Shown here: positions 24,998 to 51,137 of the stretch, in pieces
Numbering within the stretch: the first letter of the stretch is position 1
Layout: every line of letters begins with the position of its first letter
Assembly (NCBI GenBank): GCA_045598975.1
Contig: JAZRVE010000062.1
Location: 18,815-82,814, forward strand
Reading direction: 5' to 3'
Length of the DNA: 64,000 nt
Origin: Eubacteriales bacterium
GTDB taxonomy: Bacteria; Bacillota; Clostridia; Oscillospirales; CAG-382
Translations under genes and position numbers: made by a program
The notes under the pieces: model-generated
The model's database searches: none
Seen by the model: only the letters and a program-made list of their open reading frames with translations
Told to the model about the DNA's origin: nothing

Positions 24998-25196
24998 TAT
25001 ACTGTGTGTTTTTGCGCAGTCCCGGTATGAGGGCGAGGCACAAACGGCAGCGGTAAAAAGCCGTGAAAGGTATTGTCAAGGGGAAGCAGAGCACCCGGTT
25101 GTACACCGAATGATATTTTCTGGATATTGCCGGTCTTTGACGATATAAAAAACAGCCGAAACCTTTTTATTGATTTGCACATCGGAGGAAAACAAG

Positions 25197-26414
25197 TTGA
25201 AAACAGTCAGTGTCATCGGCATGGGCTATATCGGACTGCCTACTGCCATGATGTTTGCATCGCAGGGGGTGCCGGTCATCGGAACAGACTGCAATGCGAA
25301 GCGGATCCGTTCATTGCAGGAAGGAAATCTCCCGATAGACGAGGACGGCATGGACGAGCTTTTTAAGAAGGCGAGCGCCCACGGCATTCGCTTTTCGGAG
25401 AAAGTCGAGGTCGCTGACGTTTATATCATCGCCGTTCCGACGCCGTATGATAAAGAAACGAAAAAAATCGACCCGTCCATGGTGGTTTCCGCTTTCAAGA
25501 GCGTTTTGGAGGTTTGCCCCGAAAACGCGGTGCTCATCTTGGAATCGACGGTCTCGCCCGGAACGGTGGATAAATACGTCCGTCCGCTCATCGCGGAGCA
25601 CCCGGAGAAAAAAGTGAATCTCGCTCACGCACCGGAGCGCATCATTCCCGGCAATATGGTTTATGAGCTTTGGAATAATGCAAGAACGATAGGGGCGGAC
25701 GATCCCGCTGTCGGCGAGAGCATCAAAGAACTGTATCGGAATATCTGCAAGGGCGGGATCACGGTAACGGATATCCGCACGGCGGAAATGACGAAGGTCA
25801 TCGAGAATACCTATCGGGATATCAATATCGCCTTTGCCAATGAAGTGTTGAAGCTCTGCAATGCGGCGGGTATAGACGCTTATGAGATCATCCGCATCGC
25901 CAACAAGCACCCGAGAGTCAACATTCTCTCTCCCGGGCCCGGTGTCGGCGGACACTGCATATCGGTCGATCCGTGGTTTCTGGTCGGCGATTTCCCGGAA
26001 TATACCGATCTGATAAGACAGGCACGGATTATCAACGACGGAATGCCGGAATACGTTTTACAACGTATCAAAGAAGTCATGAAGCGGGAAGGACTTGCGG
26101 ATTTCGGAAAAGTCGGCTTGTACGGACTGACGTACAAGGAAAACGTGAACGACACGAGAGAAAGTCCGACACTTCAACTTCTTGCACGCATGAAAAAGCA
26201 TTCGGTCGGCGGCATCAAAGTGTATGATCCTTTCGTCAGAGAGAAGATCGCGGAGCATCAGTACTTTGATTTACAGTCGTTCTTAAACGACGTCGATATG
26301 GTCGTCATCATGGTGGGACATGATGAGATCAAACAGCATTATGATTTGATAAAACAAAAAACCGTTCTTGACACAAGACATATTTGTCCGATAGACGGTA
26401 CATATTATCTTTGA
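25197..26414 (+). CDS. Nucleotide-sugar 6-dehydrogenase, UDP-N-acetyl-D-mannosamine (WecC/Cap5O)-like
   Basis: 'VSVIGMGYIGLPTAMMFASQG' is the NAD-binding motif; also 'ESTVSPGT' and 'AHAPERIIPGN'. I chose the TTG start at 25197, 8 nt after 'ggagg'; the ORF track opens at 25170. Substrate assignment (ManNAc versus GlcNAc) is tentative. Confidence 0.8.
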   Translation: MKTVSVIGMGYIGLPTAMMFASQGVPVIGTDCNAKRIRSLQEGNLPIDEDGMDELFKKASAHGIRFSEKVEVADVYIIAVPTPYDKETKKIDPSMVVSAFKSVLEVCPENAVLILESTVSPGTVDKYVRPLIAEHPEKKVNLAHAPERIIPGNMVYELWNNARTIGADDPAVGESIKELYRNICKGGITVTDIRTAEMTKVIENTYRDINIAFANEVLKLCNAAGIDAYEIIRIANKHPRVNILSPGPGVGGHCISVDPWFLVGDFPEYTDLIRQARIINDGMPEYVLQRIKEVMKREGLADFGKVGLYGLTYKENVNDTRESPTLQLLARMKKHSVGGIKVYDPFVREKIAEHQYFDLQSFLNDVDMVVIMVGHDEIKQHYDLIKQKTVLDTRHICPIDGTYYL

Positions 26415-31266: not shown

Positions 31267-31298
31267 TAAAAATTCCCATAAGAAAAGAAGTGAAACAG

Positions 31299-32531
31299 AT
31301 GAAGATCGCCATTGCCGGTACGGGATATGTGGGACTGTCGCTTGCGGCTCTGCTTTCGCAGAAGAACGAAGTGACGGCAGTTGATATCGTTCCCGAAAAG
31401 GTCGAAATGATAAATAACAGAATCAGCCCGATTCAGGATAAAGAAATCCAAGAATTTTTTGCCGAAAAGAAGCTGGATCTGAAAGCCACCGTGAATGCCG
31501 AAGAAGCATATCGGGATGCAGAGTATGTTGTCATTGCCGTTCCGACAAACTACGATCCTCAGAAGAACTTTTTTGATACCTCTGCCGTTGAAACTGTGAT
31601 CGAAACGGTGATGCGTCATAACAAAATCTGTGTTATGGTGATAAAATCCACCGTTCCCGTAGGCTATACCGAAAAGGTCTGCGAAAAATACGGAACGGAC
31701 AGAATTATGTTCAGCCCGGAATTTTTGAGAGAATCCAAGGCACTGTATGATAACCTTTATCCGTCCAGAATCATCGCCGGAACGGACAAAGCCAATCCGG
31801 AAATGGTGCAAAAAGCGGTAAAATTTGCCTCACTTCTCCGGGAAAGTGCCGAAAAAGAGGAAGTCGAAACGCTGATTATCGGCAGAAACGAGGCGGAAGC
31901 CGTCAAGCTTTTCGCCAACACCTATCTTGCCCTGCGTGTTTCCTATTTCAACGAGCTTGATACCTATGCGGAGTTGAAAGGCTTGAACACAAAAGACATT
32001 ATCGACGGCGTCTGTCTTGACCCGAGGATCGGGAACTTTTACAACAATCCTTCTTTCGGTTACGGCGGGTACTGCCTGCCGAAGGACACCAAACAGCTCC
32101 TTGCCAACTACGGCGACGTGCCGGAAAATCTGATCGGCGCCATTGTGGAAAGCAACCGTACGCGAAAGGAATTCATCGCAGACCGTGTGCTTGCCATGGC
32201 GGGGTATTATGAGGCAAGCGAAAGCTATGACAAGGCCAAAGAGAAAGAGATCACCGTCGGCGTTTACCGCCTTACCATGAAAAGCGGAAGCGACAATTTC
32301 CGTCAGAGCAGTATCCAGGGTGTGATGAAACGGATCAAAGCCAAAGGGGCAAAGGTCATAGTCTTCGAACCCTCGCTTGAAGACGGCACGACCTTTTTCG
32401 GAAGTGAAGTAGTGAATGATCTGGATTCATTCAAAAAGATGAGTCAGTGCATCATCGCAAACCGATACGACGCCTGCCTTGACGACGTGAAAGAGAAAGT
32501 ATATACAAGAGATTTGTTCAAGAGAGATTGA
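31299..32531 (+). CDS. ugd: UDP-glucose 6-dehydrogenase
   Basis: '[21 protein letters not shown]', 'FSPEFLRE', catalytic Cys in '[10 protein letters not shown]', and overall Ugd length. Confidence 0.92.
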
Positions 32532-33613: not shown

Positions 33614-33661
33614 CCGACAGCACGGTTACAATACTTTTACAACATATTGGAGTTACTTAAA

Positions 33662-34912: not shown

Positions 34913-34940
34913 GTTGTCCCTTTAAGAAAGGTGAGATGCC

Positions 34941-36128
34941 TTGAAAAAAGTATTGATAATAGGAGCCGGCTTTTTGCAGATGTTCGTCATAAAAAAAGCA
35001 AAGGATATGGGGTATTACACTCTGGCGGTGGATGCCGATCCCAAAGCTCCCGGCTTTGCTTTTGCGGATAAATACGCCGTCATCAACATCGTTGACGAAA
35101 AAGCCTGCCTTGCATTTGCCCAAAAAAACCAAATCGACGGTGTACTGACCGCCGCTACGGAATACGGTGTACTGACCGCATCGTATATTGCGGAAAAAAT
35201 GAACCTTACGGGGTTAACGTACACGGCGGCTCAAAAGACCAAGAACAAATACAACGTGAAAAAGTGTTTTCTCGAAAACCGTGTCGATGATTCGGATGGT
35301 CAATGCTGCCTTATTGATGCCGATACCGATATCGGCACGCTTGCCGGGAAACTTTGCTATCCGGTGATCGTAAAACCGTGCGACGGCTCCGGCAGTCGGG
35401 GAACGAGCAGAGTTGATGCCCCGGACGGTTTGCCTGCGGCGTGCGGATTTGCCATGAACGGTTCGATTTCTCACCGTGCAGAGGTGGAATCCTTTGTCGA
35501 TGGTAAGGAATACGGCGCGGAAAGTCTTGTCGTAAACGGCAGGGTTTATGTGTTGGCGATCATGAAAAAACGGATGACAGACCCGCCTTATTATGCCGAG
35601 CTCGGTCATATGATCCCCTGCGGACTGCCTGCGGATATTGAAGCAAAAGCAAAGAAATGTGTGGAAAATGCGATCAAAGCGCTCGGGATCAATTCGGGTT
35701 CCGTCAATACGGATATGATCATCACCGACGGCGGAGAAATACATATCGTCGATATCGGTGCCAGAATGGGCGGAAATATGATAGGTCCGTGTATCATTCC
35801 GTACGGTACGGGGATGGATTATATGGCGGCAATGCTCGAAAACGCGGTCGGCGATTTTAAGGAATTCAAAAAAACCGAGCCAGTTGCCGTAGCGACGAGA
35901 TTGCTTGCATTCCCCGAGGGCGATGTGGTAAATCTGCCGGATGTTCCGGCATTTGAAAAAGAATTCGACGTCGAGCTTTACCACCATATGACAAAAGGTC
36001 AGCACGTCAATGCGTATCATACCAATCTGGACGGGCTGGGATACATTGCGGCAAAAGGCAAAACGGCAGAGGAAGCGGAGGAAAAAGCCGCAAAGGCTTA
36101 CAGATATTTATCGGAGGTGCTTTTCTGA
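34941..36128 (+). CDS. ATP-grasp enzyme, L-amino-acid-ligase / carboxylate-amine ligase-like
   Basis: The pre-ATP-grasp Rossmann-like N-terminus 'KVLIIGAGFLQMFVIKKAKDMGY' is followed by 'YPVIVKPCDGSGSRGTSRV' and '...EIHIVDIGARMGG'. It uses a TTG start. Confidence 0.75.
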   Translation: MKKVLIIGAGFLQMFVIKKAKDMGYYTLAVDADPKAPGFAFADKYAVINIVDEKACLAFAQKNQIDGVLTAATEYGVLTASYIAEKMNLTGLTYTAAQKTKNKYNVKKCFLENRVDDSDGQCCLIDADTDIGTLAGKLCYPVIVKPCDGSGSRGTSRVDAPDGLPAACGFAMNGSISHRAEVESFVDGKEYGAESLVVNGRVYVLAIMKKRMTDPPYYAELGHMIPCGLPADIEAKAKKCVENAIKALGINSGSVNTDMIITDGGEIHIVDIGARMGGNMIGPCIIPYGTGMDYMAAMLENAVGDFKEFKKTEPVAVATRLLAFPEGDVVNLPDVPAFEKEFDVELYHHMTKGQHVNAYHTNLDGLGYIAAKGKTAEEAEEKAAKAYRYLSEVLF

Positions 36129-36139
36129 CCGTGGAGCTC

Positions 36140-36610
36140 ATGATGAAAAGAATCAAAATGATGGATCTTGCCGGACTGAAAAAAGTCGAAAAGGTGCTTT
36201 ACGCCTGCGGAAAAGATATGGCAAAAAAATATGATATTCATCAATGGGATAATACGCATGCCAAAGACATGATAATACTCGCTTTGTGTGAGTTGAAAAA
36301 CGACGTGTTTTTGGTTTCCGATGAGCTTGAAAAAACCGTTGCCACGTTTCAGGTCAGAGCGACGGATGATGTGTTATATTTTGAAAAATTCGGGACATTG
36401 CCGGAATGCCGGGGAAAAGGCATAGCTGAAAAGATGCTTGAAAAAATCAAGAGAATCGCAAAAGAGAAAGGCTGTTCCAAAGTCGCCTGCTCGGTTTATG
36501 AAAAAAATAAATACGCGCTTGAATATTATCAAAAAAATGGCTTCACGACCTGCGGCATGACACAAACGAAAAAATACAAATTGATCGATATGGAATTGAG
36601 TGTAATATGA
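36140..36610 (+). CDS. GNAT-family N-acetyltransferase
   Basis: 'CRGKGIAEKMLEKIKRIAKEKGCSKVACSVYEKNKYALEYYQKNGF' is an acetyl-CoA-binding motif A/B region. Confidence 0.8.
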   Translation: MMKRIKMMDLAGLKKVEKVLYACGKDMAKKYDIHQWDNTHAKDMIILALCELKNDVFLVSDELEKTVATFQVRATDDVLYFEKFGTLPECRGKGIAEKMLEKIKRIAKEKGCSKVACSVYEKNKYALEYYQKNGFTTCGMTQTKKYKLIDMELSVI

Positions 36611-37320
36611 ATTCAAATGAAAAACTGACTCCCCGTCAGCATTATGACAGGGTAAAGCATCTCGAAAACTATAACGGGTTTTATCAAAAAACAGTCAAAA
36701 GAGCACTTGATATCCTTATCTGTGTGATGATTCTTCCGTTTTTCTTACTTCTTGCGATACCGATTTCCATAGCGATCAAGCTTGAAGACGGCGGCCCCGT
36801 ATTCTATCGTTCAAAACGGCTCGGTATCGGTTTTAAGGCATTCGGGATGCTGAAATTCCGGTCGATGAAGGTGGATGCACCGGATATCCGAAACCAAGAC
36901 GGAAGCACGTTCAATTCCAGAACGGATGCAAGGGTTACAAAGATCGGACGCATTCTTCGTGAAACGAGCCTTGATGAAACGCCGCAGATTTTCAACATAT
37001 TTGCGGGGCAGATGAGTTTCGTCGGTCCGAGAGCCGGAGACGTGGAGTCCAAAGATACATATGAAGAAGACGAGAAAGACAAACTTTTGATAAGACCGGG
37101 GATAACGGGATATACGCAGGCATATCACAGAAATCAGATGGATGTGGGAAACAAGCGGCTGCTTGACGCTTGGTATGCCCACAGCGTAACATTCTTGCTT
37201 GATGTAAGAATCATTATCCGAACTGTCAGAACGGTTCTTTTCAGAGAAAAGATCTATACGAACAGCGAATCGGAACCGGTTACGGATAAGGAAAAAGAAA
37301 TGATTTCCGCGGCGAAATAA
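36607..37320 (+). CDS. Priming phosphoglycosyl transferase (small monotopic 'bacterial sugar transferase', PglC/WbaP-C-like)
   Basis: 'KRALDILICVMILPFFLLLAIPISIAIKLEDGGPVFY' is the re-entrant helix; also 'KFRSM' and 'DETPQIFNIFAGQMSFVGPRA'. Confidence 0.92.
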   Translation: MNSNEKLTPRQHYDRVKHLENYNGFYQKTVKRALDILICVMILPFFLLLAIPISIAIKLEDGGPVFYRSKRLGIGFKAFGMLKFRSMKVDAPDIRNQDGSTFNSRTDARVTKIGRILRETSLDETPQIFNIFAGQMSFVGPRAGDVESKDTYEEDEKDKLLIRPGITGYTQAYHRNQMDVGNKRLLDAWYAHSVTFLLDVRIIIRTVRTVLFREKIYTNSESEPVTDKEKEMISAAK

Positions 37321-37339
37321 TGATAAAGCGGGTGTGAAG

Positions 37340-38428
37340 ATGGCGGTCAAAAAAAAGACGAAAGCCCTATATAATAAAATATTTGACGGAACCGAAACAA
37401 AGGTCGCCAATGCGATCATCACGTTTCAGGAACGAAGACAGATAAAGAAATACGTCAAAAACATGCCCCGTCTCACATCGGAGCAGAAGAAAGCCGTCAG
37501 GGATTTCTGGAAGCCGTATTGTAAGGTTGATACGGATTGGGTAAGGTACTATACTTATATTACAGGAAAGTTTGATCCGAGATATATCCCGAGTGATCTA
37601 CATTACACAAAAATAGACCAACATTTCAATAACAGAAAACTGGGCTATGGATTCAATGATAAAAACTATTATTCTTTGATTTTTCCGGGGATAAAACAGC
37701 CGAAAACGGTCGTCCGAAAAATCGGCGGGCTGCTTTTTGATGAAGACTATAAGTTGATAGATACGGAAAAAGCGAAGGAGCTTCTGAAAGCCGAGCCGGA
37801 GGTGATCGTAAAACCGACGCAGGAGAGCGGAAGCGGAAGAAATATCCGGTTTTTCGACACAAAATCGGATATGAATGAATTGACCGGCATTTTGTCGGGG
37901 CATGACGACGATAACCTGATCGTTCAGGAAATCGTGAAACAGCACGATGAGCTTGCGAAAATGCATCCGGGATCGCTGAATACCGTTCGTATTTACACGG
38001 TCATGCTGAATGACGGCGTGCACTTTCTGTCCGCTTCTCTGAAAATGGGAGCCGGGGATAGCCGTATTGATAATGTCAGCGCCAATTCCGGCATTATCGT
38101 CGGAGTAAAAGAAAACGGCGAGCTTATGGAAAGCGCATATTTTGATATGTATTCCGGAAAGACGACGGACAGGCATCCCGACGGGATGCTTCTCGGCGAA
38201 ATAAAAGTACCCGAATTTGAAAAGATGCTTGAAACCGTAAAAAGAGCGGCGCAATATACGGGGAATTTCAGATTGGTCGGATGGGATATGTCGGTCGATG
38301 AAGACGGAGATGTTATTCTGATCGAAGCCAATATGCGTAAGGGTGCAATAGGTCCGATTCAATGCGAGCACGGTCCTTTCTTCGGGGAACTGACGGAAAA
38401 AGTGTTAGATGAGGTGTTTGGTAAATGA
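37340..38428 (+). CDS. Sugar-transfer-associated ATP-grasp ligase, paralog 1 (ATPgrasp_ST-like)
   Basis: 'EVIVKPTQESGSGRNIRFFD', 'MHPGSLNTVRIYTV' and 'FRLVGWDMSVDEDGDVILIEANMR'. The ORF opens at GTG 37334; I prefer the ATG at 37340. Confidence 0.75.
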   Translation: MAVKKKTKALYNKIFDGTETKVANAIITFQERRQIKKYVKNMPRLTSEQKKAVRDFWKPYCKVDTDWVRYYTYITGKFDPRYIPSDLHYTKIDQHFNNRKLGYGFNDKNYYSLIFPGIKQPKTVVRKIGGLLFDEDYKLIDTEKAKELLKAEPEVIVKPTQESGSGRNIRFFDTKSDMNELTGILSGHDDDNLIVQEIVKQHDELAKMHPGSLNTVRIYTVMLNDGVHFLSASLKMGAGDSRIDNVSANSGIIVGVKENGELMESAYFDMYSGKTTDRHPDGMLLGEIKVPEFEKMLETVKRAAQYTGNFRLVGWDMSVDEDGDVILIEANMRKGAIGPIQCEHGPFFGELTEKVLDEVFGK

Positions 38429-39483
38429 ACAGAACGTTGTCGAAAATCAAACACGGGGTTTTATCGACTTCTGCCGGCAAAAAAATCAGGAAAACCAAAT
38501 ACAGAGCCTATTTTACAAGAGAAAATGCGATCCGTGATCTGACAAAATTCGGTATTGCTCCCACGGAGGAGCTTATTGCCGATATGTTGAAGGAAGCGTT
38601 GGACCATGACGTGACGTTTAATGAATACCTGTACTATCACTTTTATGAAGTGGAAGAAAAAGAGCGCAGAGAATTCATTCCGTTGTGGGAAGCGGAAAAC
38701 AGGTATGTTGAGGTGTTCAATGATTACAGAACGGCAGACCTGTTTTTCGATAAGGAAAGAGTTTATAACAAATTCAAGCAATTCTATAAGAGAAAACTGA
38801 TTGCATTACATCTATACAATCAGCGGGAAAAAGAGGAATTTCTTGCCTTTTTCAAAAGTGCCGGGCGTGTCATCGTAAAACCGTATGACGGCGGAGAGGG
38901 GCGCGGAGTCCGGATTTTCGATGACAGTACAGACACGGAAAAAATATTTGAGATATTAAAACGTGATTATCGGCACGGTGCGGTCGTCGAAGAAGTCATA
39001 GAACAGGATGAAAGGATGGCGGCTTTGCATCCTGCATCCTTAAATACTTTGAGAATAGCGACAGTCCGGCTTGACGATGAGATCATGGTTCTGCCTCCGG
39101 TCATGCGTGTAGGGGCAAACGGATCGGTCGTGGATAATTGCGGCTCGGGCGGAATATTATGTGAGCTTGATGAAAACGGTGTCGTAACCGGTACGGCGGA
39201 TGAAAGAGGACAAAGCTTTGAATATCACCCGACTACCGGCAAAAAGCTGATCGGATATCAGGTGCCCGACCTTACGGATGCCGTCAACCTGGCAAAAGAG
39301 TTGTCGTCGGTTTATCCGGCAGTCCGACTTGTCGGATGGGATATTGCTTTGTCAAAAGACGGCTTTGTTATGATCGAAGGAAACAGTGCTCCGAATTTTG
39401 CGGCTTATCAGTTATTCGGAAAAGGATGCCGCACATATATGGATTCCGTACTTAACAGATACAAAGAGGGTAAAAACAAATGA
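38425..39483 (+). CDS. Sugar-transfer-associated ATP-grasp ligase, paralog 2
   Basis: 'RVIVKPYDGGEGRGVRIFDD', 'LHPASLNTLRIATV' and 'VRLVGWDIALSKDGFVMIEGNSAP'. The start overlaps the previous stop (ATGA). Confidence 0.75.
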   Translation: MNRTLSKIKHGVLSTSAGKKIRKTKYRAYFTRENAIRDLTKFGIAPTEELIADMLKEALDHDVTFNEYLYYHFYEVEEKERREFIPLWEAENRYVEVFNDYRTADLFFDKERVYNKFKQFYKRKLIALHLYNQREKEEFLAFFKSAGRVIVKPYDGGEGRGVRIFDDSTDTEKIFEILKRDYRHGAVVEEVIEQDERMAALHPASLNTLRIATVRLDDEIMVLPPVMRVGANGSVVDNCGSGGILCELDENGVVTGTADERGQSFEYHPTTGKKLIGYQVPDLTDAVNLAKELSSVYPAVRLVGWDIALSKDGFVMIEGNSAPNFAAYQLFGKGCRTYMDSVLNRYKEGKNK

Positions 39484-40586
39484 ATTTATTTTCGTTAGGC
39501 ACCGGATTTTATAATTGGTTTGTGACGGCTTCTTATGATGTTTTCCGAAAGAAAATAGTAAAAAGCTATTCCATCGGGCAATGGAACGATGCGAAGAAGA
39601 ATTATCCGGACTGGAAAACGCTCACCAAAGAGCAGAAAAGTGAAATTGCGCAGTTCTGGGGGTTACAGCATCCTTCCGAATACGATTTTTATACGCACGA
39701 GATCATGCTGAATGTCCGTGGGGAATTTGACGTCCGCTATTTGCCGGAAAGGATTCATAAAGTATACCTCGATCCGTCTCAGGTGAAAAGAGGCTTTAAC
39801 AGACCGTGGGAGGATAAGAACTATTTTGAACGTTTTCAGCCGAACCTTCCTCTCCCTTATACGTTTGTCAGAAACATAGACGGTTGCTTCCTTGACCATG
39901 ACTATCGGCATATCAGCCGTGAAGAAGCGAAAAGGATCATGCTGGAACACCTTCCTTTGATCGTCAAGCCGTCCATTGATTCGGGAGAGGGCAAAAATCT
40001 CAGACTTGTTTCCGATGCGAAGGGCGTAGAGGAAGTTTTTACGGCATATGATAAGAATTATCTGGCACAGGAGGTCATTGCGCAGTGTGAGTTGTTCGAA
40101 AAAACAAATCCTCACAGCGTTAATGCCATGAGAATCGTTACGGCGATCGTAAACGGAGAAGCAAAGCTTATGTCGGGTATGCTTCTCACCAACACAACCG
40201 ATGTGATCGCGTGCAATACGAACAAAGGCCCCGGTGAGGGCGTGGTTTGTATCGGGATCGATGATAAGGGAAAATTCCTCGATACCGGATATTATGAAAA
40301 CGCAAAACCTCTGACGGAAATGCCGAACGGTCTGAAATTCGGCGGATTGGAAGTACCTTCCTATAAAGAGGCGGTCGCGCTTGCGCTTGAAGCGCATAAT
40401 GCGATGCCGATGTTCGGGATCATCGGCTGGGATATCACCATCGATAAAGATAACAAGCCGCTTATCATCGAGTGGAATCTCCATGCGATCGGTATGTATC
40501 ACTCTCAACTGACGACCGGTCCGCTTTTCGGTGAAGATTCCGAATATTTTGCAAAGCAGGCAAAAGAGCTGATGAAGCGGAGATAA
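39480..40586 (+). CDS. Sugar-transfer-associated ATP-grasp ligase, paralog 3
   Basis: 'PLIVKPSIDSGEGKNLRLVSD', 'TNPHSVNAMRIVTA' and 'FGIIGWDITIDKDNKPLIIEWNLH'. Its N-terminal region resembles paralog 1 ('LTKEQKSEIAQFW' versus 'LTSEQKKAVRDFW'). The start overlaps the previous stop. Confidence 0.75.
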   Translation: MNLFSLGTGFYNWFVTASYDVFRKKIVKSYSIGQWNDAKKNYPDWKTLTKEQKSEIAQFWGLQHPSEYDFYTHEIMLNVRGEFDVRYLPERIHKVYLDPSQVKRGFNRPWEDKNYFERFQPNLPLPYTFVRNIDGCFLDHDYRHISREEAKRIMLEHLPLIVKPSIDSGEGKNLRLVSDAKGVEEVFTAYDKNYLAQEVIAQCELFEKTNPHSVNAMRIVTAIVNGEAKLMSGMLLTNTTDVIACNTNKGPGEGVVCIGIDDKGKFLDTGYYENAKPLTEMPNGLKFGGLEVPSYKEAVALALEAHNAMPMFGIIGWDITIDKDNKPLIIEWNLHAIGMYHSQLTTGPLFGEDSEYFAKQAKELMKRR

Positions 40587-42935: not shown

Positions 42936-44009
42936 ATGAAATTGGTTTTTTATATTGACTGCATGGGACTCGGCGGTGCGCAGAGGGTCATGAAAAATTT
43001 ACTGGACTATTTTTCCGCTTGCAACGACGTGATCCTTGTTAATGATTACGCACCGTCTGTCGGCATCGAAGAATATGAAATATCCGACCGGGTAAAACGG
43101 ATATGCCTGAATGAAAAATGCAAGTCTCCGGAAAGACCCGGCAATCGGGAACGGATCTCGTTGCTCCGAAAAATCTTAATCAATGAAGAGCCGGACGTCG
43201 CCGTGTCTTTTTTGGGACCGCCGAATTACAGGCTGCTGCTTGCGTCAACGGGATTAAAAATCAAAACCGTTGTCTCGGTTCGCAATGATCCGAATAAAGA
43301 GTACGGAACCGGCATCCGGAGGATGTTTGCCGACATGCTGTTCTGTCTTGCCGACGGAGTGGTATTCCAGACGGAAGACGCCGCTTCGTATTTTTCGGAA
43401 AGCGTTCGCAAAAAATCCGTTGTGATATTTAATCCCGTATCGTCCGATTTCTATGAGAAAAAACGGAACGGATCGGGAAAAGAAATCATCGCGGTCGGAA
43501 GACTGCACCCACAGAAGAATCCGCGGCTGCTTTTAGAGGCTTTTATTAAAATCGCAGATAAAATACCGCAGTATTCATTGGGATATTACGGAGACGGCGG
43601 GTTAAGACCGATATTGGAGGCGAGGACCGAAGAGGCGGGGCTGTCTGATCGGATCCGATTTTACGGCAGATGTACCGATATGCCGGGGATCATGGAAAAA
43701 GCCGGAATATTTGTGCTATGTTCGGACTATGAGGGGATGCCGAATGCGCTGATGGAAGCAATGGCGTCCGGGATGCCGGTCATCGCCACGGATTGCCCTT
43801 GCGGCGGTCCGCGGGCACTGATTCGTGATAAAAATGAGGGGCTTCTTATTCCGATGAACGACGTTGAGGCTCTCTCGAAAGCAATTCTGGAATTGGCGTC
43901 AGACGATCAAAAGCGCGCGGATATCGGGAAAAACGCATCGATCAGAGCTCTTGACTTTTCACCGGATATCATTATGAAACAATGGGAAGCTTTTATTTCA
44001 AAACGGTAA
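42936..44009 (+). CDS. Glycosyltransferase family 4
   Basis: 'MGLGGAQRVMKNL' and 'CSDYEGMPNALMEAMASGMPVIATDCPCGGPRALI' (EX7E). Confidence 0.85.
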   Translation: MKLVFYIDCMGLGGAQRVMKNLLDYFSACNDVILVNDYAPSVGIEEYEISDRVKRICLNEKCKSPERPGNRERISLLRKILINEEPDVAVSFLGPPNYRLLLASTGLKIKTVVSVRNDPNKEYGTGIRRMFADMLFCLADGVVFQTEDAASYFSESVRKKSVVIFNPVSSDFYEKKRNGSGKEIIAVGRLHPQKNPRLLLEAFIKIADKIPQYSLGYYGDGGLRPILEARTEEAGLSDRIRFYGRCTDMPGIMEKAGIFVLCSDYEGMPNALMEAMASGMPVIATDCPCGGPRALIRDKNEGLLIPMNDVEALSKAILELASDDQKRADIGKNASIRALDFSPDIIMKQWEAFISKR

Positions 44010-44042
44010 CGAGGGGATGTTTCCCGAAAGGAGGGGAAAAAG

Positions 44043-45248
44043 ATGTCAAACGAAATGAAAAACAAAATTACATTATCAAATGTCGACTATATGGCAATTA
44101 TCTTTTCGGTCATGATAATAGCAAACAATACGTTTGAAATGGATGCGGTATTATACGTCTTTCCGAAGATGCTGATGTTCCTGTTCTTTGCCGTCATGTC
44201 CGTATTCGTTGTTCTGAATATAAAAAATAAAGAACCGTTAAACTGTAAAAATCTGATTTTTCCCGTCCTCTTTTTTGCCTGGGAATCGCTGTCCTTGATC
44301 TGGTCGGCGGACAGAGCGTATTCCTTGTTCCGTTGGGAAACGCAGGCACAGCTTTTTCTCCTGTTTTTGTTCGTATATTACTACATGAGAACAAATGGCT
44401 CGGTGAAGACGTTTCTCGTTGCTACCTATCTGTCGGGATATGCCTTACTCATCTATACGGTTTCCCGATACGGGCTTGCAAACATTTTCACTCTTGTTTC
44501 GGACGCCGACAGACTGGGAGGAGAGATCAACAATGCCAATACATACGGCATGTTTTTTGCAAGTGCGGTGCTTGTCGCGTTTTACTTTATCACGCAGAAG
44601 AAGAGCAAACTTCATATCGTAAGTATCGTGTTGTTCTCGTATTTTGCACTGGCAAGCGGCTCGAAAAAGGCGGCGGTTATGATCCTTGCGGGAATCGTCG
44701 GAATCAGTGTGCTTGCGTACGGAATCAAGCGGATGTGGAAACTATTATTGGTTTTGGCATTGCTGATTGCAATAATTCTTGTTGTCATCAACATGAATCT
44801 GTTTCCTTCCCTTGTTGAAAGGCTTACTTCTTTTCTTGCCGGTGAATTGAATGCGGGCGACAGTGTCAGAGAAATATTCAGAGAAACAGGGCTCGAATTG
44901 ATTACGAAAAGACCGTTGTTCGGATACGGGCTTGCCGTCTTTGCCAAAGTGACCGGTATCGGAACATATTCACATGACAATTTCATTGAGATCTGCGTGA
45001 GTTCCGGGATTGTCGGCTTGCTTTTGTATTATATCCCCTGGTTTTATTCCGCGTTGGTTTTGCTGAAAGACTTTTTCGAAAAAAAAGGCGATAGCTTGAT
45101 TCTGTTCATGTTTGTGATCCTGTATATCGTCATGGGGGTCGGAAACGTTCAGTATGAATCGAGAGATGTATGGATCTTTCTGGCAGTTGTATTGGCGGTA
45201 ATAGATAAAGAAAAACAGGCGGCAGAAGCAGAGGGGTATGCATTATGA
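44043..45248 (+). CDS. wzy: O-antigen/repeat-unit polymerase (Wzy; O-antigen ligase-like family)
   Basis: 401-aa polytopic membrane protein (about 10-11 TM by eye) with a larger loop near 'LVERLTSFLAGELNAGDSVREIFRETGLELITKRPLFGYG'. The locus also encodes Wzx and a Wzz domain. Confidence 0.65.
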   Translation: MSNEMKNKITLSNVDYMAIIFSVMIIANNTFEMDAVLYVFPKMLMFLFFAVMSVFVVLNIKNKEPLNCKNLIFPVLFFAWESLSLIWSADRAYSLFRWETQAQLFLLFLFVYYYMRTNGSVKTFLVATYLSGYALLIYTVSRYGLANIFTLVSDADRLGGEINNANTYGMFFASAVLVAFYFITQKKSKLHIVSIVLFSYFALASGSKKAAVMILAGIVGISVLAYGIKRMWKLLLVLALLIAIILVVINMNLFPSLVERLTSFLAGELNAGDSVREIFRETGLELITKRPLFGYGLAVFAKVTGIGTYSHDNFIEICVSSGIVGLLLYYIPWFYSALVLLKDFFEKKGDSLILFMFVILYIVMGVGNVQYESRDVWIFLAVVLAVIDKEKQAAEAEGYAL

Positions 45249-46150
45249 GCAAGCTTGCGATGGGGTTTTATATGTTGGCTGCCGGAGGACACTTCAAATG
45301 GCTGCCGGATAAGACATTTTTGAAAATACAGTACCGGCTGAACATGCATAAAAAACTGAATCTCGAAAATCCGAAGACCTTTACGGAAAAACTGCAATGG
45401 ATGAAAATATACGACAGAAATCCGGATTATATTCCGATGGTCGACAAGTATGCCGTAAAAGAGTATGTTGCCGAAAAAATCGGTGAGGAGTATATCATAC
45501 CGACTTTGGGCGTTTGGGATCGTTTTGACGAGATTGATTTTGACAAGCTGCCGGACATGTTCGTTCTGAAATGTACGCACGACAGCGGAAGCATCGTGAT
45601 CTGCAAGGATAAAAAAACTTTTAACATGGATGCGGCACGAAGAAAAATCAATGCGCATCTGAAAGCGAATCAATATGATGCCTTCCGAGAATGGCCGTAT
45701 AAAGACGTAAAGCCGAGAATTATCGCCGAACCGTATCTTGAAGATACCGAAACAAAAGAACTCAGAGATTATAAACTGTATACGTTTAACGGCACGGTGA
45801 AAATCATAGGCGTTTATACAGGAAGAAAAAGCTCTGCGGGAACATGCACGGATTTTTTCGATGAAAACTATCAACATTTGCCGTTTGTGTGGGTATATCC
45901 CAAAGCAAAGCGTGTCCCCGAAAAGCCCGATCGATTTGAAGAAATGAAGACGCTTGCGGAAAAACTTGCCCGTGGGATACCGCAGGTGAGAGTTGATTTT
46001 TATGAGGTTGACGGCAAAGTCCTTTTCGGGGAAATGACATTTTTCACCAGCGCCGGAGTCGTACCGTTTGAGTCGGAAGAATGGGACGAAAAACTCGGGC
46101 AGATGTGGGATTTGACAGGTCATAACGACACACAGACAAAACAGATATAA
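45245..46150 (+). CDS. TupA-like ATP-grasp amidoligase
   Basis: 'LNLENPKTFTEKLQWMKIYDRNP...VDKYAVKEYV', 'FVLKCTHDSGSIVICKD', 'LRDYKLYTFNG' and 'VRVDFYEVDGKVLFGEMTFFTSAG' form the characteristic TupA-like ATPgrasp pattern. The start overlaps the wzy stop. Confidence 0.8.
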   Translation: MSKLAMGFYMLAAGGHFKWLPDKTFLKIQYRLNMHKKLNLENPKTFTEKLQWMKIYDRNPDYIPMVDKYAVKEYVAEKIGEEYIIPTLGVWDRFDEIDFDKLPDMFVLKCTHDSGSIVICKDKKTFNMDAARRKINAHLKANQYDAFREWPYKDVKPRIIAEPYLEDTETKELRDYKLYTFNGTVKIIGVYTGRKSSAGTCTDFFDENYQHLPFVWVYPKAKRVPEKPDRFEEMKTLAEKLARGIPQVRVDFYEVDGKVLFGEMTFFTSAGVVPFESEEWDEKLGQMWDLTGHNDTQTKQI

Positions 46151-46270
46151 GACAGCAGAACAAGAGCCGCTATTGAATGAGGGAGATTATGCTTGAAGAT
46201 TCTGACTGTTAAGCAAGAAATCACGTAAGAAATAGGCAATATTATCCGGTATTAAGGTGGCGTGAAAACC

Positions 46271-47317
46271 ATGAAATTGCTCAGTATTCTGATTCCCGTA
46301 TATAATGCGGAAAGATTTATTAGACCCCTGCTGGAAAACCTTCTGCGTCAGGTCGACGAAAGATGCGAGATCATTTTGCTTAACGACGGCTCAACGGATC
46401 ACAGCCTTTCGATTTGCGAAGAATTTCAAAGAGAAAACAGAGGCTCGATCCGGCTTATCACAAGAGAAAACAGAGGGGCAGTGAAGTCGCGCAGGGACTT
46501 GCTTGAAGCATCAGATGGGGAATGGATCTGGATCATAGATTCAGACGATAATGTGACAGCCGATGCCGTGTCTTCTCTGATGAGTATTCTTGAAACGACG
46601 GATTGCGATATGATCCTTTTTGATATGTTTTTTAAATTATGTGGGCAGATGTTCGGAAAAAATCAGTTGCCCTATGACGATAACACGGTATTTACAGGTG
46701 ATAACAAGCATTTGTTATATGTAAAATTGGTTGAGGGGACGATAAACAATCTTTGGAATAAGGTGTTCCGAAGAAGCACGGTTGATTTTGAAAAGGATTA
46801 TACACCGTTTTATGATGTGCGCAACGGTGAGGACTGTCTTCAAGTGCTTCCGATTCTCACTGCTGCAAAAAAAATCCTCTACATGAAAAAAGCGCTGTAT
46901 ATCTATGAGATCGGCAACCCGGACAGTGTAACACATACATTCAGCGAAAAAATGTATACTTCATTGCTGAAAGTGTGGAAAGAACAAAGAACGTATGTTA
47001 TTCTCTGGGGGCTTTGGGAGGAGTATTCACGTCTATACTATACTAAGTGTGCCAATTCAGCTTGCAGACTTCTGTCTTTCTATGTTTTGTCGGAGCTGAT
47101 TGCCGATAGGGATATTCAGGCATTTTTTGATAAAGTACTGAGCGATGATGTGTTCGGAGAAAGTATCAGACTGTGTAAAACAACACTTTCACAGAAAAAT
47201 TATATGTTGATAAAGGCGCTGAAAAAAGGAAATATCAAAAGTGCTTGCCGCATAATCAATTTTACGGACAAAATCAGAAAGATTCGCAATAAATTCAGAA
47301 AAGGGTTACACATATAA
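46271..47317 (+). CDS. Glycosyltransferase family 2
   Basis: 'LSILIPVYNAERFIRPLLENLLRQ...EIILLNDGSTDHS' and the 'DSDD' DXD motif. The ATG at 46271 follows 'aaggtgg'. Confidence 0.88.
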   Translation: MKLLSILIPVYNAERFIRPLLENLLRQVDERCEIILLNDGSTDHSLSICEEFQRENRGSIRLITRENRGAVKSRRDLLEASDGEWIWIIDSDDNVTADAVSSLMSILETTDCDMILFDMFFKLCGQMFGKNQLPYDDNTVFTGDNKHLLYVKLVEGTINNLWNKVFRRSTVDFEKDYTPFYDVRNGEDCLQVLPILTAAKKILYMKKALYIYEIGNPDSVTHTFSEKMYTSLLKVWKEQRTYVILWGLWEEYSRLYYTKCANSACRLLSFYVLSELIADRDIQAFFDKVLSDDVFGESIRLCKTTLSQKNYMLIKALKKGNIKSACRIINFTDKIRKIRNKFRKGLHI

Positions 47318-48822
47318 TGACAGACAGACGCGAGAAGCAGGTAAAATACAGTATATATATGTCATTGATCGGCAAGGCGGTTACGGTAATTGTGGGAATC
47401 ATCGTTCCCAGGCTGTTTCTGTCACGCTTTGGCTCAGAGGTGTATGGTGCGACGAACTCGATCAATCAGTTCCTCGCGTTTATCACCATTCTGGAAGGCG
47501 GCGTAGGCGGAGTTGCCCGTGCGGCGCTGTATAAGCCCCTTGCCGAAAACGATATGGGCAAAACCGGCGAAATAATGACGGAAATAAAACACTATTTCAG
47601 AACAATCGGTTTTATTTTCGCGGCGTATGTCGTAGTGTTGGCGTCGGGCTTTCAAAAAATCTCCCGTATTGAGGCACTGGATTGGATATCTACGTTTTGG
47701 CTTGTGATCGTAATCAGTATTTCCGGCTTTGCACAGTATTTTATCGGAATATCCAACAGATTGTTGATGCAGGCATCTCGAAGGCATTATATTTCAAGCT
47801 TTATCGATATCAGCGGTATTATTGTGCAAGCGATCGTGACCGTCCTTTTGATCCGTGCGGGATGCGGTATCATTACGGTAGAATTATTCATCGCATTTGT
47901 TTGCACTTTGAGACCGATTTTGTTATGGCTTTATGTAAAAAAGAGTTTTGATCTGAAAAAGACCGCACGCAATAAAAATGCTCTTGAAAACAAATGGACC
48001 GGCATGGGACAACATCTTGCCTTTTTCCTGCATAACCAGACGGACGTTGCCGTATTGACACTTTTGGGCAATTTGCTGTTGGTGGCGGTATATTCCGTAT
48101 ATGCTATGGCGATCAACGCAATACAGAACATCGTTTTATCTTTCTCGACCGGAATGGAAGCGCTGTTCGGTGATATGTATGCCAAGAAAGAGTATGAGTT
48201 GCTGAACAAGACCTTCAACGAATATGAGACATTGATATCCTGCATAACAACGGTACTGTTTTCGACGACAATTGTTTTGCTCACGCCGTTCGTAAGAATA
48301 TATACAAGCGGTATCACGGATGCGGATTATTATCAACCGCTGTTCGGCATTGTCCTTGCGATCGCTTCTGTCTTATATTGTTTGAGAGCCCCATATCATA
48401 ATATGGTTATAGCGGCAGGACATTTCAAGGAAACCCGATGGGCATCATATGGCGAGGCGGTCATCAATTTGTTGCTTTCAATCCTTCTCGTAATGAAGTT
48501 CGGACTTGTCGGCGTTGCGATCGGAACCGTTTGCGCAACGGCGTTTCGCCTTATATTCTACGTGTTCTATCTGTCAAAAAATATCCTTAACAGAAGCGTC
48601 GGTTTATGGCTGAAAAGGACGGTCGTCAACGCCGTCGTGATGATAATCATAATCTTTTTGGGTAATCTCGCAACAAGTCATATGGAAATAGACAATTATT
48701 TGTATTGGGCTCTGACGGGTGTAATAACAGTCGGTATTGCCGCGGCGGTCACAATGATCGGTAATTTCTGTTTCTATAAGAATGACACTATACGGGTGTT
48801 AAAACATATCATTTCAAAATAA
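47317..48822 (+). CDS. wzx: Wzx-type oligosaccharide flippase (MOP/PST family)
   Basis: 501 aa, about 14 TM helices, N-terminus 'YMSLIGKAVTVIVGIIVPRLFLSRFGSEVYG'. The start ATG shares one base with the GT2 stop (TAATG). Confidence 0.8.
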   Translation: MTDRREKQVKYSIYMSLIGKAVTVIVGIIVPRLFLSRFGSEVYGATNSINQFLAFITILEGGVGGVARAALYKPLAENDMGKTGEIMTEIKHYFRTIGFIFAAYVVVLASGFQKISRIEALDWISTFWLVIVISISGFAQYFIGISNRLLMQASRRHYISSFIDISGIIVQAIVTVLLIRAGCGIITVELFIAFVCTLRPILLWLYVKKSFDLKKTARNKNALENKWTGMGQHLAFFLHNQTDVAVLTLLGNLLLVAVYSVYAMAINAIQNIVLSFSTGMEALFGDMYAKKEYELLNKTFNEYETLISCITTVLFSTTIVLLTPFVRIYTSGITDADYYQPLFGIVLAIASVLYCLRAPYHNMVIAAGHFKETRWASYGEAVINLLLSILLVMKFGLVGVAIGTVCATAFRLIFYVFYLSKNILNRSVGLWLKRTVVNAVVMIIIIFLGNLATSHMEIDNYLYWALTGVITVGIAAAVTMIGNFCFYKNDTIRVLKHIISK

Positions 48823-48870
48823 TTTTTGCAAAAAAGCTTTTCCGAAAAAGAAAAAAGGAGATTTCGTCAA

Positions 48871-50439
48871 ATGAATTCAGCAAAAAAAACAGACAAAACC
48901 ATGGTGGATGTGCATCGTATACTGAAAGCACTGTGGAAAAAGAAGATTCTGATAGTTGTGGTGTCAGTATTGTGTGCGATAATCATGGTAGTAGGCGTTG
49001 CGGTGTTCTCAACGCCGAAATATCGGGCAGACATTCTTGTATATGTCAATAACCATGCCGTTTCCGTCGGGGGCACGGCTATCAGTTTCAGCACGGGAGA
49101 TCTGACGGCGGCAAGAGCTCTTCTTGACACATACATCGTTGCGCTGAAATCAAGAAAATCGTTGGATGCCATTATTGAAAAGGCTGACCTGCCTTATACG
49201 AGAAGACAGCTTTCAAGCATGATTTCGGCGGGCTCGGTAAACAAAACCGAGTGTTTTACCGTTGCTGTCACAGCCGGCGATCCGGAAGAGGCACGGATCA
49301 TTGCGAATACAGTGGCGGAGGTTTTGCCGGAGGTACTGTCAAACACAATTGAAGGAAGCTCGGTCAAAGTTCTCGACTATGCGATCGCGCCACAGAACAA
49401 GGTCGATCCGGGGTATACAACTTTTGCCGAAATCGGTTTTATTATCGGATTCATTCTGATCGCTCTTATCGTTACCGTAAAAGAAATCCTGAATGATAAA
49501 ATTCACGGGGAAGACACGCTGACCGAGATGTCCGATACCGTTCCGGTCCTTGCCACGATTCCGCACAAAGGGATGAAGGGCAGTTATTCCAAATACGGGT
49601 ACGGTCATAAGAATAAGGAAAACGGCAGTTCGCATAAGAGTAAGAGCAAGTTCTTCGATGAAGCTACGGCTATATGCGGCGACCTTGATTTTTCCCAGAC
49701 CGAGGCATACAATCTGCTTCAAACAAGTGTGCAGTACAGCTTTGAAAATGATGGCTGTAAAGTTATCGGCATCACCAGCTCGGAAAGAAATGAAGGAAAG
49801 AGTACACTTGCCGTTAACCTTGCCTATTCGCTTTCGGCTGACAAGAAAAAGGTACTTCTTCTTGATGGTGATATGCGTCTGCCGACCATCGCAAAGAAAT
49901 TGGGACTTGAATCCACGCCCGGACTCAGTGATTATCTGACCGGAAAAGTACAGAATGACGACGGCATACAGCACAGCCAAAAGGCGCCGTCCATGTCGGT
50001 CATTTGTTCGGGCGTCGTACCGCCCAATCCGTTCCGACTGATCGGCTCGGCAAGTATGGAAAGATTGTTGGATTCACTCAGAGAAGCATATGATTATATT
50101 ATCGTCGATCTTCCTCCGGTCAATATCGTTTCCGATCCGCTTTCCGTTGCCCGATATCTTGACGGATTTATCATCGTTGCCCGCGGCGAATACTCGACCA
50201 GACAGGGCGTTGCGGATGTTGTCAAGAAACTTGAAGTCGTAAAGGCGAATATTCTCGGTTTTGTTGTGAACGGCGACGGTTCGTCTTCGGAAAATAAGTA
50301 CGGCAAATATGGCAAACACGGAAAATATGCGGCCTCGGACGGGGACTATGAAAGCCATTATGAGCGTTCCGCAAAGAAAGCCGCCGACCGCACGGTTTCA
50401 CCGGAATCATCCGGCAGTGATACAACGAAAAAATCATGA
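48871..50439 (+). CDS. Fused Wzz-type chain-length regulator and BY-family tyrosine autokinase (CpsC-CpsD fusion)
   Basis: The N-terminal Wzz module has two TM helices ('ILIVVVSVLCAIIMVVGVAVF', 'IGFIIGFILIALIVTV'). The kinase has Walker A 'SSERNEGKST', A' 'LLLDGDMRLP' and B 'IIVDLPP'. The C-terminal Tyr cluster is 'NKYGKYGKHGKYAASDGDYESHY'. The ATG at 48871 follows 'aaggag'. Confidence 0.88.
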   Translation: MNSAKKTDKTMVDVHRILKALWKKKILIVVVSVLCAIIMVVGVAVFSTPKYRADILVYVNNHAVSVGGTAISFSTGDLTAARALLDTYIVALKSRKSLDAIIEKADLPYTRRQLSSMISAGSVNKTECFTVAVTAGDPEEARIIANTVAEVLPEVLSNTIEGSSVKVLDYAIAPQNKVDPGYTTFAEIGFIIGFILIALIVTVKEILNDKIHGEDTLTEMSDTVPVLATIPHKGMKGSYSKYGYGHKNKENGSSHKSKSKFFDEATAICGDLDFSQTEAYNLLQTSVQYSFENDGCKVIGITSSERNEGKSTLAVNLAYSLSADKKKVLLLDGDMRLPTIAKKLGLESTPGLSDYLTGKVQNDDGIQHSQKAPSMSVICSGVVPPNPFRLIGSASMERLLDSLREAYDYIIVDLPPVNIVSDPLSVARYLDGFIIVARGEYSTRQGVADVVKKLEVVKANILGFVVNGDGSSSENKYGKYGKHGKYAASDGDYESHYERSAKKAADRTVSPESSGSDTTKKS

Positions 50440-51137
50440 CGGAAGAAAAATGTACGGTCGATATCCATACGCATATTTTGCCTCAAATGGATGACGGTGC
50501 TTCTTCTTTGGAAGAGAGCTTACAGCTTGCAGGCGAATTATCAAAGCAGGGGATTACCGTCATAGCGGCAACACCGCACTTCTACGCCGACAGAGAGAAT
50601 CCGTCCGATTTCTTTGACAGAAGACGGAAAGCCGTATCTTTACTTGCCGACAAGCTTGACAAAGGCGTAACGGTTTTGCCGGGAGCGGAGGTTTACTATT
50701 ATCAGGGGATCAGCAGAACGGAGCGGCTGCCGGAATTTGCGATCGGGCAGACGGATCTGCTGCTGCTCGAAATGCCGTTCGGCGATTGGACGCGGTCTGT
50801 GATAAACGAAGTCTGTTCCATTCAGAGAGAGAGAAAATTGCAGGTCGTTATAGCCCATATCGACAGATATATGAGCCAAAAGAACGTGGACAATATTGAG
50901 GATATGATTAGCCTCGGCATGCTGTTTCAGATCAACGCAAGCGCATTCCTTGATAAAAAGCGGAAAAATGCGGCACTTGCCATGCTGAAAAACAGAATTG
51001 TCCACTTTGTCGCTTCCGATTGCCACAACATGACGGCAAGACCGCCTAAACTTCGTGATGCGTATGAAGTGATCGAAAAGAAACTCGGAAGTGACTCCGT
51101 GAAATGGCTCTGCGAGCAATCGGAATTATATTTTTAG
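50436..51137 (+). CDS. PHP-family protein-tyrosine phosphatase (CpsB/YwqE-type)
   Basis: 'VDIHTHILPQMDDGASSLEESL...ATPHF' and a later 'ASDCHN'. The start overlaps the kinase stop by 4 nt. Confidence 0.9.
   Translation: MTEEKCTVDIHTHILPQMDDGASSLEESLQLAGELSKQGITVIAATPHFYADRENPSDFFDRRRKAVSLLADKLDKGVTVLPGAEVYYYQGISRTERLPEFAIGQTDLLLLEMPFGDWTRSVINEVCSIQRERKLQVVIAHIDRYMSQKNVDNIEDMISLGMLFQINASAFLDKKRKNAALAMLKNRIVHFVASDCHNMTARPPKLRDAYEVIEKKLGSDSVKWLCEQSELYF

Follow-up and report, generated by a model that had tools for sequence, protein, structure and literature searches.

A TupA-like ATP-grasp gene, probably for an amidoligase, joined to a Wzy polymerase gene in a Clostridia polysaccharide cluster, and recurrent Wzy-TupA fusions

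The TupA-like ATP-grasp enzymes that have been defined biochemically are the C-terminal domains of Cj1438 (HS:2) and HS19.11 (HS:19) of Campylobacter jejuni, which use ATP to amidate glucuronate at its C6 carboxylate with (S)-serinol phosphate or ethanolamine phosphate (PMC11800379, PMC13276843, PMC12409886). These domains, Cj1438C and HS19.11C, amidate glycosidically bound glucuronate with release of ADP and do not accept UDP-glucuronate (PMC13276843, PMC11800397); in C. jejuni, glucuronate is joined to the growing chain and then amidated, and the next glycosyltransferase needs the amide (PMC11800397, PMC11800379). The founding gene, tupA of Bacillus halodurans C-125, has been tied to teichuronopeptide, a polymer of polyglutamate and polyglucuronate (PMC8153356). 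Stand-alone TupA-like genes, WemR of Proteus mirabilis among them, are found in loci for surface polysaccharides and have been predicted to attach amino acids (Iyer et al. 2009, as cited in PMC13419641). Klebsiella CfmP, which its authors place in the TupA-like family by predicted-structure searches while reporting an N-terminal domain unlike that of the amidoligases they examined, acts on the fimbrial subunit FimA, a modification that is independent of surface polysaccharides (PMC13419641). Amino-acid uronamides are also known from the O-antigens of Escherichia coli O110, O167 and O91 (PMC7685785). Here we describe a TupA-like gene (tupA) from an Eubacteriales bacterium, found in a stretch of 64,000 nucleotides (nt) of contig JAZRVE010000062.1 (assembly GCA_045598975.1, positions 18,815 to 82,814; the window), where it overlaps the end of a gene for a Wzy-type repeat-unit polymerase. 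We consider it likely, at a probability of roughly 60%, that the encoded enzyme amidates a uronic acid already present in the lipid-linked repeat unit, in an ATP-dependent reaction at the cytoplasmic face, beside the assembly machinery.

A first-pass annotation made from the sequence alone had reported a 301-residue open reading frame (ORF) that starts inside the wzy stop codon. This proved exact: the ATG of tupA occupies 45245-45247 and the TGA of the wzy ORF (44043..45248) occupies 45246-45248, giving an ATGA overlap. The ATG is further supported as the start because the N-terminus MSKL.MGFY is conserved in an alignment with relatives of 62-78% identity. All four TupA-like motifs that the annotation had quoted were located in the translation (NPKTFTEKLQWMKIYD, residues 42-57; KCTHDSGS, 109-116; DYKLYTFNG, 175-183; VDFYEVDGKVLFGEMTFF, 250-267), and the match to PF14305 (ATPgrasp_TupA) that it had proposed as a check was obtained in a profile search (231 bits, cut-off 25, E 2e-68), in which residues 48-287 aligned with positions 1-239 of the 241-position profile. 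None of the NCBIfam models matches the protein. A 324-residue ORF on the opposite strand (45149..46123) spans the whole of tupA but is without a family match, and we discarded it as a shadow ORF. The reading of the upstream gene as a Wzy polymerase also held, as the Wzy_C profile was matched above its cut-off. The background that the annotation gave on the family, namely that it is named after a teichuronopeptide gene and that glucuronamide in the HS:2 capsule of C. jejuni is made by a related domain, agrees with the literature (PMC8153356; PMC11800379, PMC11800397).

In a BLASTP comparison, the window protein was 30% identical to HS19.11C over 299 columns (E 5e-32), with all family-invariant positions in common; the HS19.11C sequence used here was machine-read from the supporting information of PMC13276843, and a few of its residues may be wrong. 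HS19.11C itself scores 119 bits on PF14305. The motifs NPxTFxEKL, FVLKxxHDxG, REWxYK, YK, RVDxY and GExTF are common to both proteins. As in C. jejuni, the cluster includes a gene of the UDP-glucose-dehydrogenase type, and the amidoligase has a genetic link to the next protein to handle the polymer. The two systems differ in arrangement and pathway. Cj1438C and HS19.11C are C-terminal domains of fusions with a GT2 glycosyltransferase, whereas the window enzyme stands alone, its partner being Wzy rather than a glycosyltransferase and the GT2 being encoded by a separate gene. The window pathway is Wzy-dependent with a Bac_transf initiator, in contrast to the ABC-transporter-dependent capsule of C. 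jejuni, and HS19.11C carries an insertion of ~25 residues after the N-terminal helical region that the window protein lacks. As a stand-alone TupA-like protein in a polysaccharide locus the window protein resembles WemR, a likeness by description to a protein whose function is a prediction. With TupA of B. halodurans C-125 it shares the Pfam family by name, and both go with an acidic surface polymer of uronic and amino acid components (PMC8153356).

An AlphaFold2 model of the 301-residue protein, built on 20 homologs, reached a predicted local distance difference test score of 92.6 and a predicted TM-score of 0.89, and a Foldseek search of the PDB with this model returned 258 matches at E<=1e-3. 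The best of these were all ATP-grasp ligases, comprising D-Ala-D-Ala ligases (Ddl), LysX/ArgX, RimK and PsnB, with TM-scores of 0.40-0.46; an ATP-grasp fold is confidently modelled for the protein. No solved structure for the TupA-like family was found in searches of all PDB chains with the sequence and with a 20-sequence profile and, since these searches gave nothing meaningful, mapping of residues onto a solved active site is by motif analogy only. Across the 20 homologs and HS19.11C, K109 (in FVLKCTHDSG), H112, R148, E149, W150, Y152 and K153 are invariant, and so are E162 (IIAE), Y176/K177, R249/D251 (RVDFY) and E263/T265 (GEMTF). By analogy with DdlB and with the CfmP E269Q mutant (PMC13419641), K109, E162, R249/D251 and E263/T265 are putative ATP/Mg-binding residues, in the places of the strand Lys, hinge Glu, R-x-D and E-x-N/T of ATP-grasp ligases. 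We take the R-x-D...E-x-N/T pattern to correspond to R255/D257/E270/N272 of DdlB. The N-terminal helical region has the NPxTFNEKLQW motif of the family at residues 42-52 (NPKTFTEKLQW), in which P43, T45, E48, K49 and L50 are invariant, HS19.11C included. In Klebsiella CfmP, mutation of a conserved glutamate (E269Q) abolishes function (PMC13419641).

By analogy with Cj1438C and HS19.11C, the enzyme would activate a uronic-acid carboxylate with ATP, yielding ADP and presumably an acyl-phosphate, and an amine would attack the activated sugar carboxylate to form the amide. The same analogy suggests that the substrate would be a uronic acid residue of the undecaprenyl-diphosphate-linked repeat unit at the cytoplasmic face, rather than a nucleotide sugar. 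For the amine-phosphate pathway of C. jejuni, with its pyridoxal phosphate (PLP) enzymes Cj1436/Cj1437 and its phosphatase Cj1435, no equivalents were recognized in 25170-51137, where they were looked for without direct sequence comparison, and on this ground the amine is probably different from that of C. jejuni. No candidate for a dedicated phosphatase was recognized in the same interval, the CpsB there being the partner phosphatase of the kinase, and the one PLP enzyme of the cluster, DegT, scores best against nucleotide-sugar aminotransferases (PseC 263 bits, ArnB 214 bits). The amine would probably be a common metabolite, with an amino acid as the simplest guess from the cluster context, because recognizable equivalents of the C. 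jejuni pathway are lacking there. The ligase would work next to Wzy, either tethered near its lipid-linked substrate or feeding a Wzy that is specific for the amidated unit, and either arrangement could lead wzy and tupA to be inherited and expressed as one module.

The first-pass annotation had also taken the coupling to wzy, rather than to the other ligases, as a sign of a distinct modification. On that argument, the proposal is not supported. The cluster has 23 gene junctions, and at eight of these, among them the ones inside the triad of ATPgrasp_ST ligase genes, the genes share an identical -4 overlap (in seven cases with ATG), so the ATGA overlap alone says little. Better grounds for a distinct reaction are the different family (PF14305 vs PF14397) and the presence of two nucleoside diphosphate (NDP)-sugar dehydrogenases; neither shows which ligase is paired with which acid, and a different uronate as the target of the TupA-like enzyme, compared to the other ligases, is possible. 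There is no sign of a separate transcription unit around tupA, as promoter- and terminator-like sites in 43900-46400 were not above shuffled background (8 vs 5.1+-2.2 and 3 vs 2.3+-1.8). The gap of 111 nt 3´ of tupA (46151-46261) is the longest intergenic gap in the cluster and lies at the edge of a module resembling that of an Acutalibacteraceae locus (L003, discussed below); promoter- and terminator-like sites within this gap likewise were not above shuffled background.

More informative was the occurrence of the same pair as a single protein. We surveyed 20 long representatives from among the top 150 representatives, together with the fetched loci L053, L058 and L021. Among the 20 were 10 Wzy_C-TupA fusions, one O-ag_pol_Wzy-TupA fusion (PF14296), two MOP-flippase-TupA fusions and three glycosyltransferase (GT)-TupA fusions, such that Wzy-TupA fusions account for at least 11 of the top 150. 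The fusion-bearing representatives are P0195, P0197, P0201, P0211, P0221, P0227, P0236, P0240, P0241, P0273, P0184, P0159, P0212, P0169, P0269, P0165 and P0185. In the fetched loci, the TupA domain is C-terminal on large membrane proteins, following Wzy_C in L053 (10883-13165), a Polysacc_synt_3 flippase in L058 (8543-10813) and an unclassified transmembrane (TM) domain in L021 (8747-10837). The TupA domains of the fusions (e.g. P0197, P0195, P0227, P0159, P0169, L053) are 42-56% identical to the window protein. Nine Wzy fusions are colinear with both window genes, with Wzy N-terminal and TupA C-terminal as in the window gene order; in P0197, the best of the nine, residues 70-393 match the window Wzy (E 4e-27) and residues 432-711 match TupA (E 2e-86). 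Wzy fusions outnumber GT fusions 11 to 3, even though in such loci glycosyltransferase genes are generally several-fold more numerous than wzy. The full range of fusion partners observed was Wzy_C, O-ag_pol_Wzy, MOP flippases (Polysacc_synt, Polysacc_synt_3, MatE), GT4, TOD1/MUCI70-like glycosyltransferases and a small CoA_binding/PglD_N-like domain.

The Wzy-TupA fusion arose more than once, as its polymerase part comes from at least two unrelated families (Wzy_C and PF14296). The window arrangement is a split form of this fusion: unlike the fusions, it has two separate genes with an ATGA overlap, the ligase gene having its own ribosome-binding site. A frameshift or sequencing artefact as the source of the split was ruled out by this ribosome-binding site and by the conservation of the split in the closest relative for which context is available, L001. 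There the protein is 71% identical and the DNA 72% identical across wzy and tupA, and the same 4-nt Wzy_C/TupA overlap, the ATPgrasp_ST triad and the same set of five ligases are kept. Since the pairing is conserved and recurs as a fusion, the adjacency of Wzy and TupA is meaningful, and it reflects a link between ligase and polymerase rather than the choice of uronate. A further step, which we put forward tentatively and regard as rather doubtful, is that amidoligase and Wzy form a working unit in which the ligase docks on the cytoplasmic face of the polymerase, many bacteria having it fused covalently to the polymerase or the flippase, and amidation is coupled to export and polymerization, the enzyme here being one of up to five amide-forming ligases that would build a peptide-decorated (teichuronopeptide-like) heteropolysaccharide in what is probably an uncultured clostridial bacterium of the gut. 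We found no description of the Wzy-TupA fusion pattern in the searchable literature, the founding comparative-genomics paper being outside it, and domain-architecture databases may already list the pattern.

Several observations weigh against amidation of a lipid-linked uronate beside Wzy. We know of no characterized TupA-like enzyme from a Wzy-dependent, Gram-positive-type or Firmicutes cluster, and the only proven members share 30% identity with the window protein and belong to a capsule pathway with an ABC transporter, where their amines are amino-alcohol phosphates. Of 80 related loci, only 30 have an NDP-sugar dehydrogenase gene within +-10 kb, a co-occurrence that was counted in 10-kb flanks with no baseline and that we do not use as support, and the closest named relative (L003/L004) is without such a gene nearby. 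Within the window, the UDP-glucuronate formed by the dehydrogenase at 31290 might be consumed for an amino sugar instead of being kept as a uronate, since this gene precedes a short-chain dehydrogenase/reductase (SDR) gene and the DegT aminotransferase gene. Among 79 related loci from named genomes, in which same-strand neighbours were counted, the upstream neighbour resembles the window Wzy by sequence in ~10, a minority. A hydropathy and positive-inside estimate placed the Wzy C-terminus 'inside' in 10 of 16 proteins, a crude measure with unreliable TM counts. Finally, CfmP, which has been assigned to the TupA-like family, acts on a fimbrial protein and not on a polysaccharide (PMC13419641).

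Other explanations can be weighed against these data. One concerns the pairing only and is compatible with amidoligase function: the overlap with wzy could reflect compact operon packing, with the ligase being a free cytoplasmic enzyme unrelated to the polymerase. The other -4 overlaps in the cluster, the predominance of glycosyltransferases as neighbours of TupA in related loci and the lack of an adjacent wzy in L003, the 62% relative, all are in line with packing, but recurrent fusions in at least two Wzy families (Wzy_C, PF14296) and with flippases, the nine fusions colinear with both window genes and the retention of the overlap in L001 at 72% DNA identity are not, and we think packing possible while not favouring it. 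A different reaction is envisaged if the enzyme is a peptide-extending ligase, whose acceptor would not be a sugar carboxylate but a free carboxylate on an amino acid or peptide that the polymer already carries. It would add an amino acid there and, together with the ATP-grasp_4 ligase and the three ATPgrasp_ST ligases acting in series, build up a peptide side chain, so that the polymer becomes a teichuronopeptide-like glycopeptide. Five ATP-grasp ligases are more than two dehydrogenases explain at one ligase per uronate, the five-ligase set is kept in L001, ATPgrasp_ST genes co-occur with TupA in 10 of the 80 loci, and the polymer with which the founding tupA is associated consists of polyglutamate and polyglucuronate (PMC8153356). 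Against peptide extension, the C6 carboxylate of a sugar is what the only members with defined biochemistry activate, and most related loci have TupA without another ATP-grasp ligase (70 of 80 are without ATPgrasp_ST), which leads us to judge this reading unlikely.

The same chemistry could instead be directed at a carboxylate of the repeat unit other than that of a uronate, for instance that of a pyruvate ketal or of some other acidic group. The pyruvyl transferase gene in the cluster (27391-28494) and the 50 of 80 related loci that are without an NDP-sugar dehydrogenase gene within +-10 kb would fit such a target. However, dehydrogenase genes may lie beyond the 10-kb flanks or elsewhere in the genome, both proven members use the C6 of glucuronate and no precedent was found in the searched literature, making a non-uronate target improbable. 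That the enzyme modifies a protein, as CfmP does FimA without any need for surface polysaccharides (PMC13419641), appears more improbable still, to the point of being hard to credit, given that tupA is flanked by wzy and a GT2 gene within a polysaccharide operon of 26 kb, and that the protein has a full-length PF14305 match and homology to the sugar amidoligase HS19.11C; moreover, the assignment of CfmP was made by predicted-structure searches, and its authors report an N-terminal domain unlike that of the amidoligases used in their comparison (PMC13419641). Amidation of a uronic acid in the lipid-linked repeat unit thus is the reading we prefer.

The gene is part of a plus-strand polysaccharide cluster of ~26 kb (~25170-51137; Table 1). 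By profile matches, the Wzy-dependent, CpsBCD-type set is complete for initiator, Wzy, Wzz/bacterial tyrosine (BY)-kinase and CpsB, and the cluster is a Wzy-dependent, Gram-positive-type locus with capacity for up to two uronic acids. On the basis of profile scores, the dehydrogenase at 31290..32531 is a candidate source of a uronic acid, and that at 25170..26414 a candidate source of a second, (N-acetylhexosamin)uronic acid. With a pyruvyl transferase encoded at the upstream end, the polymer may carry pyruvate ketals, which are a second kind of carboxylate. Five ATP-grasp ligases are encoded, namely TupA, ATP-grasp_4 and three ATPgrasp_ST; of the last family (PF14397, 'sugar-transfer associated'), we know of no characterized member. 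We also noted that 31290-36610 is a contiguous cassette of UDP-glucose-dehydrogenase-like, SDR, DegT, ATP-grasp_4/L-amino-acid ligase (LAL) and GNAT genes, which looks like a pathway to an amino sugar with the amino group acylated by an (N-acetyl)amino acid. The 501-residue protein encoded downstream of the GT2 gene has no Pfam or NCBIfam match and no BLASTP similarity to the Polysacc_synt_3 flippase domain; its homologs are present in 32 of the 80 related TupA loci, often directly 3´ of TupA. It is the cluster's sole candidate for a flippase and probably belongs to a poorly modelled family of such proteins.

Table 1. Features of tupA and of the polysaccharide cluster around it (positions in the window)
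Feature	Position	Strand	Basis
NDP-sugar dehydrogenase, nearest UDP-ManNAc dehydrogenase	25170..26414	+	TIGR03026 415 bits; PRK11064 351, below cut-off 459
SDR	next after the 25170..26414 dehydrogenase	+	cluster order
Polysaccharide pyruvyl transferase, CsaB-like	27391-28494	+	PF04230 94.6 bits; upstream cluster end
Two glycosyltransferase-like genes, then PIG-L deacetylase	between pyruvyl transferase and 31290	+	cluster order
NDP-sugar dehydrogenase, nearest UDP-glucose 6-dehydrogenase	31290..32531	+	TIGR03026 313 bits, cut-off 190; PRK15057 562, below 757
SDR, 361 residues	between the 31290..32531 dehydrogenase and DegT	+	cluster order
DegT aminotransferase	33647-34912	+	nearest PseC/ArnB
ATP-grasp_4 ligase with LAL C-terminal domain (fifth ATP-grasp)	34941..36128	+	PF13535 55.5 bits, PF18603 33.8 bits
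GNAT	between ATP-grasp_4 gene and Bac_transf	+	cluster order
Initiating polyprenyl-phosphate sugar-phosphate transferase (Bac_transf)	36607..37320	+	PF02397 183.9 bits; TIGR03025 220, below cut-off
Three tandem ATPgrasp_ST (PF14397) ligase genes	37334..40586	+	125.6, 166.4 and 94.3 bits; joined by ATGA overlaps
Three GT4 genes	between ATPgrasp_ST triad and wzy	+	cluster order
Wzy-type repeat-unit polymerase gene (wzy), 401 residues	44043..45248	+	Wzy_C (PF04932) 46.6 bits, cut-off 31.7
Initiation context of tupA: Shine-Dalgarno-like AGAGGGG (45230-45236), 8-nt spacer, ATGA start/stop overlap (45245-45248)	45230..45248	+	read from sequence
TupA-like ATP-grasp amidoligase gene (tupA), single-domain short form, 301 residues	45245..46150	+	ATG start; PF14305 match
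GT2 glycosyltransferase	46262-47317	+	PF00535 96 bits
501-residue multi-TM protein, candidate flippase	47317-48822	+	~13 hydrophobic segments; no Pfam/NCBIfam match
Wzz/tyrosine-autokinase (P-loop) fusion and CpsB-type phosphatase	48826..51137	+	PF02706, PF13614, TIGR01007 164.5; PF19567 153 bits

The nearest named relatives of the window protein are from uncultured Clostridia, the best being that of an Acutalibacteraceae metagenome-assembled genome (MAG) at 62% identity. In this locus (L003) wzy is not adjacent to the TupA gene, and the 3´ end of tupA, the GT2 gene and the 501-residue gene form a module common to it and the window. At the DNA level this part of the window (45233-48886) is a mosaic, with matches to L003 that cover the 5´ half of tupA (45233-45730, 79%), its last 84 nt (84.5%) and the GT2 and 501-residue genes (46260-48886, 81%), and with wzy plus tupA matching L001 at 72%. 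Divergence from all relatives is greatest where tupA encodes residues ~180-270, a pattern compatible with recombinational exchange of a specificity-determining region. Across the 79 loci from named genomes, glycosyltransferases are the commonest neighbours of TupA, and a multi-TM protein is encoded directly upstream in 24 and directly downstream in 26. Two or three separate TupA-like genes occur within 20 kb in 22 of the 80 related loci (L004-L083), which suggests several distinct amidations per polymer in some organisms.

The family as a whole is very large, with 10,785 representatives (50% identity) at E<=1e-3 and 2,784 at E<=1e-30, and homologs are found across Clostridia, Bacilli, Bacteroidales, Fibrobacter, Kiritimatiellia and Saccharibacteria, and in one Methanocorpusculum MAG. 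Cultured relatives with a homolog include Ruminococcus sp. YRD2003 (L024), Streptococcus constellatus (L022) and Facklamia miroungae (L059). Homologs with 51-63% identity are present in a MAG of an archaeal methanogen, Methanocorpusculum sp. (L039), and in MAGs of distant bacterial phyla from animal guts, assigned to Saccharibacteria (L056) and Thermoguttaceae (L005), which points to wide horizontal spread of the gene or to binning contamination. Most close homologs are ~445 residues long (e.g. P0005, P0018, P0096) and comprise a full TupA domain and a second copy of its C-terminal half, in which the DYKF...RVDFY...GELTF motifs are repeated (alignment columns 313-460).

The window gene is an ordinary member of this known family, with a known type of reaction, and as a single gene is routine; the one element for which the searchable literature gave no description is the Wzy-TupA fusion pattern. 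The recurrent fusions of TupA with Wzy and with flippases suggest, as a general rule, that the amidoligase is welded to whichever enzyme next handles its product, which is a glycosyltransferase in C. jejuni and the polymerase in the window. The pairing of Wzy and TupA therefore offers a handle on how modification of the repeat unit is coordinated with polymerization, and an approach to the substrate specificity of Wzy, a property difficult to examine directly. Through amidation a surface polymer loses negative charge and can gain an amino-acid epitope and, because charge and epitope are altered in this way, knowledge of the TupA substrate would aid sequence-based prediction of capsule chemistry in gut anaerobes.

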